A stretch of 64,000 nucleotides of DNA from Escherichia phage 55, in sequence record OQ599310; one strand, 5' to 3'. The notes under the pieces are model-generated. The model was not told where the DNA came from. It was given only the letters and a program-made list of their open reading frames with translations, and made no database searches. Of this stretch, positions 41,398 through 50,333 are shown piece by piece (position 1 is the first letter of the stretch; each line of letters opens with the position of its first letter). The position numbers and the translations under genes are program-made.

Positions 41398-41458
41398 GGG
41401 GTTTACATCTTCCTCTAGGCATGATATGATGAACTTACACAAACCAAGAGGAAACATT

Positions 41459-41833
41459 ATGAATATGTCTCAAGCAATTTTTACTGCAATCACCGAAAAC
41501 ACAACTGTTGAAGTAGTTTCTCCGCTGGCAACCTACGTTATTCTTGCTCCTAAAACTATTGTATCTCGTATGGAAAACATGGGCAAACGTATCGTACAAA
41601 TCGTTGGAGCCGGAAATCAAAAACTTGATTATCTGCGAACCATCAAAGCTTATGAACATTTCCAACTCGAAAAAGGTTCTCCTATCCAGGTAGAACTCGT
41701 AAATGGTGATATCGTTCGAGCAATGTTCCATCATTTCTATGCATTGAATGACCCATCTAAAGCGGTTCGTTTAATTGCATACGACGCAAACCAAAACGAA
41801 ATCAATGCAGATATATCTAAATTACGTTTTTAA
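41459..41833 (+). CDS. hypothetical protein (124 aa)
   Basis: AGAGGAAA RBS before ATG 41459. Confidence 0.55.
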   Translation: MNMSQAIFTAITENTTVEVVSPLATYVILAPKTIVSRMENMGKRIVQIVGAGNQKLDYLRTIKAYEHFQLEKGSPIQVELVNGDIVRAMFHHFYALNDPSKAVRLIAYDANQNEINADISKLRF

Positions 41834-41880
41834 GTTTACTTCTCCAGTAGTTGTGTTATTATAGACCTATCAACTACTGG
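41834..41880 (+). promoter_or_regulatory. early promoter with 10-bp inverted repeat whose downstream arm overlaps the RBS
   Basis: GTTTAC 41834..41839, TATTAT 41857..41862; CCAGTAGTTG 41844..41853 / CAACTACTGG 41871..41880. Confidence 0.55.
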
Positions 41881-41888
41881 AGAACAAA

Positions 41889-42206
41889 ATGAAAACCATC
41901 GATTGTAAAGCAGAATTTAAGATTTTTTATCACGGTTCAAGTAGTTCAGTTAACATCGAAAACATGCTTTGTCCTCCTGAAGAAACAGGAGTTCTGTCTG
42001 AAACTGGACGTAAGAAAAACTTGGATCGTGTATTCTTTACTGAAGATATCGGTTTAGCAAAGATTTATGCAGGACGAGCAGCACGCTCTTATGGAGGTGA
42101 ACCACGTCTCTATCGAGTAATTTCTCCGGTAGACGTAGTTCAAATGAATGATACTAAAGGTGCTACAGTTTATCACGCTGAATGGGCCTTCTGTGAGGAA
42201 ATCTAA
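41889..42206 (+). CDS. Arr-like (rifampin ADP-ribosyltransferase family) fold protein
   Basis: FYHGSSS...RVFFTEDIGLAKIYAGRAA...GEPRLYRVISP parallels Arr motifs FYHGTKA...HIYFS...GYIYIVEPTGP as recalled. Confidence 0.4.
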   Translation: MKTIDCKAEFKIFYHGSSSSVNIENMLCPPEETGVLSETGRKKNLDRVFFTEDIGLAKIYAGRAARSYGGEPRLYRVISPVDVVQMNDTKGATVYHAEWAFCEEI

Positions 42207-42213
42207 AATGGAA
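42195..42213 (+). repeat. 19-nt gene-junction repeat copy 1 (GAGGAAATCTAAAATGGAA)
   Basis: exact duplicate at 42400..42418. Confidence 0.8.
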
Positions 42214-42411
42214 AATATGGCTAAAGTGTTGTTTATTGGTTGGTTTGAAAATGGGAATATGTTTACCAAAGAAGTTACCATGGACGTGTCTGATAAAGAC
42301 CAAATCCTACGGGCCACTTCTCAATTTGCTGAAGTAAATAAAGCTTTAGTTGAAGCATTTGTTGATGATAAGAAAGTTTTTGAATCCGATTGGCGTAAAG
42401 AGGAAATCTAA
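42208..42411 (+). CDS. hypothetical small protein (67 aa)
   Basis: GAGGAAA RBS before ATG 42208. Confidence 0.5.
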   Translation: MENMAKVLFIGWFENGNMFTKEVTMDVSDKDQILRATSQFAEVNKALVEAFVDDKKVFESDWRKEEI

Positions 42412-42418
42412 AATGGAA
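42400..42418 (+). repeat. 19-nt gene-junction repeat copy 2
   Basis: exact duplicate of 42195..42213. Confidence 0.8.
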
Positions 42419-42553
42419 GAAGTAGAATGTGTAGTGTGTGGTTGTAGCGTCTATGAAGACGAAGCTGTTTTCGATGCATATGATAATGCGACTTGTTTAG
42501 ACTGCGACCGTGAATCTGAAGAACATGCTTACGAGCATGAAGACGAGGAATAA
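42413..42553 (+). CDS. small acidic zinc-ribbon protein
   Basis: CVVCGC...CLDC pairs; 46 aa. Confidence 0.5.
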   Translation: MEEVECVVCGCSVYEDEAVFDAYDNATCLDCDRESEEHAYEHEDEE

Positions 42554-43365: not shown

Positions 43366-43659
43366 ATGAAAAAGTTATCATTGGCAGCAATCCTACTTGC
43401 AGTATCATGTGCACCGGCTCCAGTTACGGCAGGTTATGATAAAGACCTCTGTGAGTGGTCAATGACTGCAAATCAAGAAGATGTTGAACAACAAATCTTC
43501 TCTGATATCATGAACATCACTAAACGAGACCGTCCTAATATGGTTAATAAAGTTGTTGAACAACTTAAGTCTGGCGGTATCATGCAGTACAACTATGTTT
43601 TGTATTGTGACCCTAATTTCGATAACAAAGATATCGTAACCGAAATCACAGGTGAATAA
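43366..43659 (+). CDS. exported protein, Spackle (sp)-like by size, signal peptide and position
   Basis: 97 aa; signal peptide MKKLSLAAILLAVSCA; between genes 41 and 61 as T4 sp. Confidence 0.4.
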   Translation: MKKLSLAAILLAVSCAPAPVTAGYDKDLCEWSMTANQEDVEQQIFSDIMNITKRDRPNMVNKVVEQLKSGGIMQYNYVLYCDPNFDNKDIVTEITGE

Positions 43660-43660
43660 T

Positions 43661-44311
43661 ATGATTTATTATATGCACAAAAACGCACCATTTAAATATG
43701 GTAAATTTCCTAATGCACAATGTTATAATATAACGCCGAATGAAAATAATAACGGATACCATATTGGTGTAATTTTTGTAATTGTTAAAGATAACGAAAT
43801 TGTTGCCTGGGCAGATTTTAAAGGTACAACATATGATGTTAATCCAGTGCCTTTCACATATTATAATTTAATGGATTTAGCATACGACTATAATTGGTTT
43901 ACTCATGATACTCTAGCACATGTTGAAGGCGTAGGATTTGACATCTCTTATTCTAGTTATTCATTATGTCCTATGAGCCGAGCTCACGGTAAAGATGTAT
44001 CATATCTTTCAATTCGGAAACGTGTAAACTTCAAACGTAGTACAGAGTATGTTGGTGGACTCTTTGTTAAAGATAATAAAATAACTCGTATTAGTTATCC
44101 TTTAAGTGTAGGTCAAAAAGATGTTGATGTTGATTTAGACTTAACTGAAAGTAACATTAATCGTATTGCTTCTGTATATTTTGATATCGATGAAAAAATT
44201 GTAGTGTGTGGATACGAATTACCACCTGAAGAAAAGGTTGAAGCAATTGAAGTCGAATTAGAAATTTCTGTTGATGACCAAATATTTAATGCATTTATGA
44301 ATCGAGGTTAA
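43661..44311 (+). CDS. hypothetical protein (216 aa) in AT-rich segment
   Basis: ATG 43661 right after upstream stop; markedly AT-rich codon usage. Confidence 0.5.
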   Translation: MIYYMHKNAPFKYGKFPNAQCYNITPNENNNGYHIGVIFVIVKDNEIVAWADFKGTTYDVNPVPFTYYNLMDLAYDYNWFTHDTLAHVEGVGFDISYSSYSLCPMSRAHGKDVSYLSIRKRVNFKRSTEYVGGLFVKDNKITRISYPLSVGQKDVDVDLDLTESNINRIASVYFDIDEKIVVCGYELPPEEKVEAIEVELEISVDDQIFNAFMNRG

Positions 44312-49085: not shown

Positions 49086-49667
49086 ATGACATGTCAATCT
49101 GAACTTCAAGAACGCGAGTATCTCGCAGCACTAATTAACGATAAATTCACTAAACAAGAACAAAACATTCTCTGGGCTTGCACCGATTCTAAGGAAGACC
49201 CGGATTTCCACTATGAATTAGACCATCTTGTTCGTAAGCATATGACTTCTACAGTACCAGTAGAACTCTACCGTGGTGTAACTCCAGAAGAAGTAGAACA
49301 TCTTTCCCTTCTTTCTGTTGGATGCCATTGGTCTCCTGGACGAGTAACATCGTTCACAACTGATTTCAGTACGGCTCGTCAATTCTCTGGGAGATGGGAA
49401 TATCAGACGTACACTATTCTTAGTCTCAGGAATGCTCCATTCATTTTTGATTACTACCAAAACATGGTTAACATTGTACTCGCCGGAAAGAATCCTAAGC
49501 ATGTTATGGAAGAAACGCGCGTTGACGTCCTAGATATGATTGAATCTGAACAAGAGTACATGGTCTCAGGCATCTCTAGATTTGAGATTGTGGAAATTGA
49601 AGACTTAGAATATGACCCTTTATCTCGATTATACAAAATCATTCATTTGAAAATGTTGAATTTTTAG
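49086..49667 (+). CDS. modA: mono-ADP-ribosyltransferase, ModA-like
   Basis: R / S-T / E-x-E ART-type motifs (YRG..., SFTTD, EQEYMV); first of two tandem paralogs. Confidence 0.5.
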   Translation: MTCQSELQEREYLAALINDKFTKQEQNILWACTDSKEDPDFHYELDHLVRKHMTSTVPVELYRGVTPEEVEHLSLLSVGCHWSPGRVTSFTTDFSTARQFSGRWEYQTYTILSLRNAPFIFDYYQNMVNIVLAGKNPKHVMEETRVDVLDMIESEQEYMVSGISRFEIVEIEDLEYDPLSRLYKIIHLKMLNF

Positions 49668-49724: not shown

Positions 49725-50333
49725 ATGTTTATGCCGTATAACGAGTGTGAAATTGAAGAAATGGTTCGTCGTGCTCAAAACCCCGAATATCAAGATGTAT
49801 TGCAGTACGAAATTGATAGTCAATTCAGCGACATTGAACAAAGTGTACTGTGGCAGTGTATGGAAAACAAGCCAGACTGTATTCAACAGGAGTTAAGTTC
49901 AATCGTTCGTAGAAATTGGACGTCTTCTGTTCCTGAGACAATGTATCGTGGAATCTCTAAGAAAACTATGGCCACACTTGATGATAAAGGCATCGGTAGT
50001 ATTATTAAATTTGACAGAGTAATGAGCTTCAGTCCAGTGTTCGGTGTAGCACGTAACTTTGCTTCGTATAATTTTTACGGAACATTTAATATGTTCTGCA
50101 TCAAAGATGCACCATTTGCTTTCAACTTCCGTGAACATATGCTTAACATGATTCTGGCTGCGCCATCTTGTGAGTTCAATGGAGCTTTCCCTGAAGCGAC
50201 AAGACGGTCTAATGCTAGACTTATATCTGACGAATGTGAATTTATGCTCCCTATAGGGACTACACTGCGTGTAGATTCTATTATTCAAGATGGACGTTAT
50301 ACAATCTGGAATCTGTCTATTGTCGGTTACTGA
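49725..50333 (+). CDS. modB: mono-ADP-ribosyltransferase, ModB-like
   Basis: paralog of previous ORF (YRGISKK..., SFSP..., ECEFMLP). Confidence 0.5.
   Translation: MFMPYNECEIEEMVRRAQNPEYQDVLQYEIDSQFSDIEQSVLWQCMENKPDCIQQELSSIVRRNWTSSVPETMYRGISKKTMATLDDKGIGSIIKFDRVMSFSPVFGVARNFASYNFYGTFNMFCIKDAPFAFNFREHMLNMILAAPSCEFNGAFPEATRRSNARLISDECEFMLPIGTTLRVDSIIQDGRYTIWNLSIVGY

Follow-up and report, generated by a model that had tools for sequence, protein, structure and literature searches.

T-even phages are the classic viral ADP-ribosylation system, and work on this system rests on the Alt, ModA and ModB enzymes of phage T4. These early ADP-ribosylating host-takeover enzymes of about 200-680 aa belong to the R-S-E clade of ADP-ribosyltransferases (ARTs) and have protein (and RNAylation) targets. 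Small phage ARTs with protein targets exist as well, as is seen for ModA/ModB and for the anti-CRISPR ART AcrIF11 (PDB 6KYF). The latter modifies the protein Csy1 and retains acidic catalytic residues (D146/E147 in the Pae2 homologue). KptA/Tpt1, an RNA 2'-phosphotransferase (PDB 9LD3, 9LDI and 8TG3), consists of about 180 aa in two lobes, of which the N-terminal RNA-binding lobe carries most of the Arg-His-Arg-Arg tetrad. The resistance enzyme Arr (PF12120; Arr-ms, PDB 2HW2 and 9IAF; Arr-2, PDB 9IBA) has 143-150 aa. Its catalytic motif is H-Y-D, namely His19, Tyr49 and Asp84 in Arr-ms (bioRxiv 10.1101/2025.02.20.639278). One of its loops is equivalent to the D-loop of PARPs (bioRxiv 10.1101/2025.02.20.639278).

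A system resembling the one analyzed here has been predicted before. For phages of Escherichia, Shigella and Salmonella, Iyer et al. (2022) proposed that an ART toxin of a 'p0068 family' is paired with the antitoxin Dmd, and they speculated on RNA targets for this ART (PMC9503650). A second, unrelated (Mod-like) ART was found beside Dmd at the same position in Klebsiella phages (PMC9503650).

The present locus lies in a stretch of 64,000 nucleotides from Escherichia phage 55 (OQ599310), here called the window, which is 99% identical to Escherichia phage LF82-41 and Shigella phage Shf125875. The phage is a Mosigvirus (RB69-like, Tevenvirinae). The local gene order is uvsX, 40, 41 (helicase), a 135-aa ORF, a 105-aa ORF, dmd, a 46-aa CxxC ORF, imm, spackle and, further on, primase. 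The 105-aa ORF, termed mini-ART in the following, occupies 41889..42206 on the plus strand, exactly where the initial annotation had placed it. It runs from an ATG start to a TAA stop and is preceded by a Shine-Dalgarno sequence, GGAG, at 41879-41882, six bases 5' of the ATG. The gene is a homologue of RB69ORF040c and falls in phrog_2110 (E 1.7e-59), a family with no function assigned there. Its homologues are 'hypothetical' in most records; a few are already labelled 'ADP-ribosyl transferase' or 'rifampin ADP-ribosyl transferase', the latter in one Klebsiella phage record. Located 7 kb 3' of mini-ART are two tandem ModA/ModB-like genes (49086-49667 and 49725-50333; phrog_832, 'RNA polymerase ADP-ribosylase', E 4e-38 and 3e-37), which brings the number of ART genes in the window to at least three.

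The initial annotation had read the protein as a small Arr-like ART on the basis of three ordered motifs, and all three are indeed present: FYHGS at residues 13-17, VFFT...A..YA as V48-F49-F50-T51 ... A57-K-I-Y60-A61 (its dots were not literal counts) and G...(L/I)Y.V..P as G70-EPR-L74-Y75-R-V77-IS-P80. They are no chance occurrence: they coincide with invariant or near-invariant columns of a 67-member alignment (H15, G16, F49, T51, A57, Y60, A61, G69 and G70), and HMMER and hhalign also align them with the motifs of Arr itself. A fourth common motif had been missed, E38-x-G40-R41, which corresponds to E43-x-G45-R46 of Arr-2.

The relationship to Arr emerges from profiles. Taken as a single sequence, mini-ART scores 13.4 bits (E 0.089) with Pfam Arr-ms PF12120, below the gathering score of 25 bits, and 12.7 bits (E 0.081) with NCBIfam rifampin_ARR NF033144, which has a cut-off of 130 bits. 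No match was obtained when the PDB was searched by phmmer with the single sequence or when PADLOC was run on mini-ART, and a profile built from close T4-like sequences only did not find Arr in the PDB. The profile of 67 diverse members, used in hmmsearch against the PDB, matched Arr-ms (E 2e-4) and Arr-2 (E 0.014); the only other match was an unrelated aminotransferase at E 1. Alignment with 22 Arr-2-like proteins by hhalign gave 96.4% probability and an E-value of 1.1e-9 over 81 columns. An exhaustive profile search collected 219 relatives of mini-ART. Many relatives that are 45-54% identical to it pass the Pfam Arr-ms gathering score (26.9-29.4 bits), and 24 of the 42 multidomain relatives match that family at E <= 1e-4.

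The structural models point in the same direction. AlphaFold2 reached a pLDDT of 84.4 with a 42-sequence alignment and 90.7 with the 67-sequence alignment (pTM 0.77 and 0.81, respectively). Both models share one topology, with beta1 at residues 13-18, a short helix at 30-33, beta2 at 48-51, a helix at 54-68 and four more strands, and this is the split beta-sheet fold of ARTs. Foldseek ranked KptA and Arr first among the matches of the model; a sequence match to KptA was absent from the Pfam and PDB searches. The similarity to Arr on which the initial annotation had staked its reading was thus found by hhalign, by the PDB profile search and by Foldseek, and that mini-ART has an ART fold and is homologous to Arr can be regarded as practically certain. 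The homology spans beta1 to beta3. Arr is the closest characterized sequence relative of mini-ART, but mini-ART itself is not an Arr. Going by these comparisons, the protein is best explained as a member of a virus-specific clade within the Arr-ms (PF12120) family.

The active site is atypical. Strand beta1 carries the motif F-Y-H-G-S (residues 13-17, 41925..41939, plus strand), in which H15 aligns with His19 of the H-Y-D triad of Arr-ms. H15 and G16 are invariant in 67/67 members and position 17 is T or S in all of them, so that the NAD-binding His is in place. The most conserved segment, P29-P-x-x-T-G-x-x-S-E38-x-G-R41-K-K-N-L-D-R47 (41973..42029, plus strand), corresponds to the Arr loop Val32-His46 and contains the E-x-G-R motif that is invariant in Arr. 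In strand beta2 (V-F-F-T, residues 48-51, 42030..42041, plus strand), F49 occupies the position of the catalytic Tyr49 of Arr-ms. This position is F in 62 and Y in 5 of the 67 sequences; with F the aromatic ring is retained and the hydroxyl is lost. T51 is present in 66 of the 67 members. The core of the single long helix, A57-K-I-Y60-A-G-R-A64 (42057..42080, plus strand), contains the invariant A57 and Y60. Altogether, H15, G16, E38, R41, F49, T51, A57, Y60, G69 and G70 are invariant or nearly so in the 67-member alignment.

The alignment with Arr ends at residue 84, just short of the invariant F-E-D-D-P-N of Arr, and mini-ART has no equivalent of this motif. In the models, its last 21 residues form two strands (94-97 and 99/100-104) that replace 60 residues of Arr, including the C-terminal helix. 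Mini-ART thus differs from Arr in lacking the last third with the catalytic Asp, in having Phe for the catalytic Tyr and in its length; of the H-Y-D motif only the His is kept. After residue 80 (beta3) no position is acidic in more than 45% of the 67 members, and a third catalytic residue could not be assigned there. By comparison, AcrIF11, which has no detectable sequence similarity to mini-ART, and diphtheria toxin retain acidic residues on the C-terminal strands. The only near-invariant acid of the family is E38, in the equivalent of the D-loop. Overall, mini-ART lacks several defining features of Arr and of the protein-modifying H-Y-E ARTs, while it retains the core of the NAD site. The KptA/Tpt1 two-lobe architecture is not found either, mini-ART having no N-terminal RNA-binding lobe. 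An argument for nucleic-acid binding from a basic protein was considered and rejected for the T4-like subfamily, as the pI of mini-ART is 5.7 (subfamily median 6.9). The invariance of Glu103 may partly reflect the part that its codon plays in the downstream Shine-Dalgarno sequence.

Directly 5' of mini-ART, a consensus scan predicted a promoter-like site, (G)TTTACT - 16 nt - TATTAT with a TG (41835..41862, plus strand), which resembles the early-promoter consensus of T4 (GTTTAC / TAnnnT). The pair GTTTAC...TAT(T/A)AT recurs in the same place 5' of the homologue in Dhakavirus, Tegunavirus, Kanagawavirus, Biquartavirus, Lazarusvirus and Ishigurovirus; a terminator hairpin often comes directly before it. 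The site would be an early-type promoter of mini-ART that is kept in most lineages. The 135-aa ORF between gp41 and mini-ART (41426-41833; phrog_10668, no Pfam match) has a promoter-like site of its own at 41402-41430. In Dhakavirus, Tegunavirus and Kanagawavirus this ORF is absent here, and a terminator precedes the ART promoter instead.

The promoter-like site overlaps a predicted RNA hairpin with a 14-bp outer stem (41840..41884, plus strand; RNAfold dG -21.1 kcal/mol, z -5.26), and none of 200 shuffled sequences folded as stably. Its 3' arm holds the GGAG of the mini-ART ribosome-binding site and the promoter spacer contains its 5' arm; the hairpin is therefore present only in read-through transcripts. 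In such RNA it would block the ribosome-binding site, and mini-ART would be translated only from its own early transcript. Hairpins that restrict translation to one transcript class are known from T4. A short version of the hairpin, TCTCC...GGAGA, recurs at the homologous loci of Dhakavirus, Tegunavirus and Kanagawavirus.

By tblastn, the ART was found in 609 phage records spanning several Straboviridae subfamilies, with Escherichia (215), Klebsiella (116), Acinetobacter (68) and Aeromonas (62) as the main hosts, next to Enterobacter, Cronobacter, Vibrio and others. T4 has no copy: a six-frame scan of its whole genome gave a best E-value of 0.15, versus 5e-41 in the window, and at the syntenic site gene 41 is directly followed by dmd. 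A search for cellular homologues in 185,579 species genomes found only four loci, with a strict pattern (ExGR[KN]KNLD) that divergent members could escape. Two of these are T4-like phage DNA in bacterial assemblies; the other two, both in Patescibacteria, are orphan genes whose neighbors are uninformative. The family is virus-specific. A T4-like ART copy of 70% identity was seen on a 178-kb contig of a 'Flagellimonas marina' assembly (NZ_JBHSCL010000010.1) and in a Selenomonadaceae MAG. The former is probably phage DNA that was binned or assembled with the bacterial genome, because 178 kb is the size of a T4-like phage genome.

No conserved gene neighbor was found in 15 ART loci beyond the syntenic replication genes. 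The gene 3' of the ART varies in at least eight lineages: it encodes a lipoprotein in Tegunavirus and Kanagawavirus, a small membrane protein in Slopekvirus and gp30.6 in Biquartavirus, and in Acinetobacter, Proteus, Aeromonas and Vibrio phages it is an unrelated ORF. RNA ligase 2 lies 1-1.5 kb from the ART in Slopekvirus and Pseudotevenvirus. A second 'home' of the ART can be recognized in Slopekvirus (L005 1593-2462), Biquartavirus (L007 1680-2441) and Pseudotevenvirus (L015 1974-2894), where a conserved protein of 250-300 aa (phrog_7439, no Pfam match) always lies 5' of the ART and Srd lies within ~1.5 kb 3' of it. In Matisse and RB43, RNA ligase 2 comes immediately after Srd.

The gene is under strong purifying selection (dN/dS 0.07-0.10 at a dS of about 1-1.6). 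For the same phage pairs, its dN is 0.09-0.11 versus 0.24-0.27 for the gp41 helicase, and the amino-acid identity is 83-89% versus 65-68%. Recent horizontal transfer was rejected as the cause of this high conservation, since dS is about 1 or more and the nucleotide identity is 77-82%.

At its 3' end, mini-ART is tightly joined to dmd. The junction GAGGAAATC-TAA-A-ATG-GAA (42195..42213, plus strand) comprises the last codons (E-E-I), the stop (42204-42206) and, one base on, the start of dmd (ATG at 42208). The two genes are adjacent and co-directional with translational coupling, as GAGGAAA in the last mini-ART codons serves as the Shine-Dalgarno sequence of dmd. The latter (42208..42411, plus strand; Pfam Dmd E 6.4e-23, phrog_2102) encodes a 67-aa antitoxin-like inhibitor of RnlA/LsoA and is a neighbor of mini-ART whose role as partner is only putative. 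The 19-nt junction GAGGAAATCTAAAATGGAA, reported earlier as a duplication, occurs in exactly two copies (42195-42213 and 42400-42418), where shuffled sequences predict none. The second exact copy (42400..42418, plus strand) lies between dmd and an ORF for an acidic 46-aa protein with a zinc-ribbon-like CxxC...CxxC pattern (42413-42553, plus strand; phrog_13952). The 46-aa ORF follows dmd in both Mosigvirus and Dhakavirus (78% identity) and is coupled to it via the same junction.

The junction is a combined Shine-Dalgarno/stop/start cassette. In all lineages GAGGAAAT forms the end of the ART homologues, immediately 5' of the next start codon, and provides the Shine-Dalgarno sequence of whatever gene follows. 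The ART-dmd order is also found in Dhakavirus, with two tandem dmd copies; in Dhakavirus fDHCT2 (L002 2800-3220) these are flanked by three near-identical junctions. As the 3' codons of the ART act as a Shine-Dalgarno sequence everywhere and dmd is flanked by junction repeats, dmd looks like an inserted cassette. The repeats suggest that it may have been inserted or duplicated at the 3' junction of the ART by recombination at the junction microhomology.

Across genomes, ART and Dmd do not show conserved co-occurrence. Dmd was found in 795 records, almost all from Escherichia/Shigella phages and most without the ART; T4 and at least about 380 Escherichia phage records have Dmd alone. Conversely, the ART occurs without Dmd in Klebsiella, Acinetobacter, Aeromonas, Proteus, Yersinia TG1, Edwardsiella and Vibrio phages. 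The 'p0068-family ART + Dmd' is very probably the mini-ART gene, matched by description only: in both cases an ART lies immediately beside Dmd in T4-like phages. However, the authors placed their ART in a clade with H-Y-[EDQ] (PMC9503650), whereas Arr-ms is nearest here, and in the present survey the ART is mostly found without Dmd. An obligate toxin-antitoxin relation between the two is unlikely; a looser functional theme common to both, such as RNA or RNase conflicts, is possible.

Whereas mini-ART in the window is a stand-alone protein, relatives form part of much larger proteins that measure 870-3924 aa. Polyvalent proteins, reportedly described by Iyer and co-workers in 2017, are giant proteins with many domains that carry effector modules in phages and conjugative elements, and the mini-ART domain recurs in such proteins of phages. 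The partner domains are ART-PolyVal, NUDIX, 2H/Acb1-like, LPD23, ddrB-ParB, Toprim, GNAT, CHAP, portal and tape-measure. The embedded relatives often adjoin the first three of these or are fused to portal or tape-measure proteins. ART-PolyVal (PF18760) shares the same giant injected proteins and is often directly adjacent, but it is a distinct domain; only one of 42 T4-like members matches it at even E 0.27, and the two stand side by side as separate modules. In several giant proteins (P0131, P0139, P0159 and P0186) the mini-ART module lies within ~20-100 residues of a separate ART-PolyVal domain, giving tandem, unrelated ART modules in one polypeptide, and in P0159 a NUDIX domain follows immediately after the mini-ART module. 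Metagenomic unrelated phages also carry relatives, one of which adjoins a NADAR protein, an Acb2/Tad1-like protein and an RNA ligase.

The best explanation, offered tentatively, is that mini-ART is an active, stand-alone, NAD+-dependent and immediate-early enzyme for host takeover or counter-defence. We infer its catalysis, timing and role: as soon as infection begins, mini-ART would be transcribed from an early promoter of its own, would transfer ADP-ribose to a target conserved across the Gammaproteobacterial hosts and would act as a host-takeover or counter-defence effector independently of Dmd. It is probably catalytically active with NAD+. What speaks against this explanation is the change from Tyr to Phe and the lack of an assignable third catalytic residue, with which the protein could be a weak enzyme, a NADase or a binder. 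The same two features favor an inactive or hydrolytic protein that binds NAD or ADP-ribose and serves as a sponge or decoy for NAD-derived immune signals, or as a NADase, as do the relative beside an Acb2/Tad1-like sponge and a NADAR protein and the existence of ART-fold NADases (PMC9503650). This is nevertheless improbable: conservation of His15, the E-x-G-R loop and the aromatics is as strict as in Arr enzymes that are active, fusion to NUDIX and 2H domains suggests the formation and processing of a product, and early NAD+ depletion would harm the phage. That mini-ART is a true Arr, which ADP-ribosylates rifamycins or a similar ansamycin and thereby protects the RNA polymerase of the infected cell, is hardly credible. 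Arr is its closest characterized sequence relative and one Klebsiella phage record carries the corresponding label, but the rifampin_ARR score is far below the cut-off, the alignment stops short of F-E-D-D-P-N, and the protein has 105 aa without the C-terminal helix in the model. In Arr, it is this helix that, with the adjacent loop, shapes the ligand site (bioRxiv 10.1101/2025.02.20.639278). Moreover, Iyer et al. (PMC9503650) locate genuine Arr genes outside the T4-like phages, in actinophages and in one Sinorhizobium phage. Arr is a resistance gene, whereas mini-ART would be a phage early gene, and its substrate is almost certainly not a rifamycin.

For the favored active enzyme, the acceptor needs to be considered. 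A non-protein nucleophile, such as a phosphate or hydroxyl group of a nucleotide or at the end of RNA or DNA, is weakly favored, because the nearest neighbors in structure and sequence, KptA/Tpt1 and Arr, use such chemistry, because the conserved Glu/Asp on the C-terminal strands of protein-modifying ARTs is absent, and because the fusions to NUDIX and 2H domains have parallels in the KptA-Nudix and KptA-2H associations reported elsewhere (PMC9503650). On the other hand, mini-ART is not basic, it has no RNA-binding lobe as in KptA, and the links to RNA ligase and Dmd in its neighborhood are loose. The small phage ARTs that modify proteins, AcrIF11 and ModA/ModB, also count against this reading. 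Alternatively, it may be a protein-targeting mono-ART like T4 Alt/ModA/ModB or AcrIF11 that modifies one or a few conserved host proteins early, with RNA polymerase, translation factors, an RNase or a defence protein as candidates. This is rather unlikely, as the C-terminal strands, the site of the catalytic acid of protein ARTs, hold no conserved Glu/Asp/Gln, neither an R-S-E nor an H-Y-E triad is present, the nearest relatives in sequence (Arr) and structure (KptA) act on non-protein acceptors, and the phage already has ModA/ModB-type enzymes. Iyer et al. (2022) proposed a type II toxin-antitoxin pair, in which Dmd would neutralize an ART that is toxic through, for instance, the modification of RNA. 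The coupled ART-dmd arrangement, shared with Dhakavirus, and the Mod-like ART beside Dmd in Klebsiella phages (PMC9503650) fit this proposal. Yet it is doubtful in view of the mismatched distributions of ART (many non-Escherichia phages) and Dmd (Escherichia/Shigella), the variable gene 3' of the ART and the presence of Dmd in T4, which has no ART anywhere in its genome. In addition, Dmd has an established external target, RnlA/LsoA (see also PMC9503650), and the junction repeats around dmd suggest cassette insertion rather than co-evolution. A bolder form of the favored reading, to which we give only a small chance, sees the mini-ART family as the smallest known self-sufficient ART (about 95-105 aa), with a non-canonical active site in which the near-invariant Glu38/Arg41 of the D-loop replace the strand acid, that modifies RNA ends, a nucleotide or a second messenger against RNase- or signal-based immunity. 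If true, this would be a new enzymatic counter-defence principle, common to most Straboviridae except T4 and to polyvalent proteins of many other phages.

Mini-ART represents a virus-specific clade of a known enzyme family and had already come to notice in computational work and in some annotations; literature searches found no experiments on this phage family. That the gene has never been studied is probably due to its absence from T4. It adds to the T-even-like phages a further ART, of a clade unrelated to that of Alt, ModA and ModB, that is unusually small and conserved, has an atypical active site and is experimentally tractable. The gene is present in more than 600 sequenced Straboviridae and evolves more slowly than the replicative helicase, while its module also occurs in the polyvalent proteins of unrelated phages. 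The identity of its acceptor would reveal what a minimal ART can do without the canonical catalytic acid, and would put the proposed link to Dmd and RNase-based immunity to the test. Many therapeutic-candidate phages carry mini-ART, and a few records call it a rifampin-resistance enzyme; the evidence indicates that this label is wrong.

One more gene of the window deserves mention. A 219-aa ORF (43652-44311; phrog_3781) lies 3' of spackle and occupies the position of T4 gene 61.2, whose RB69 homologue is presumably the one named anti-DarT factor A.
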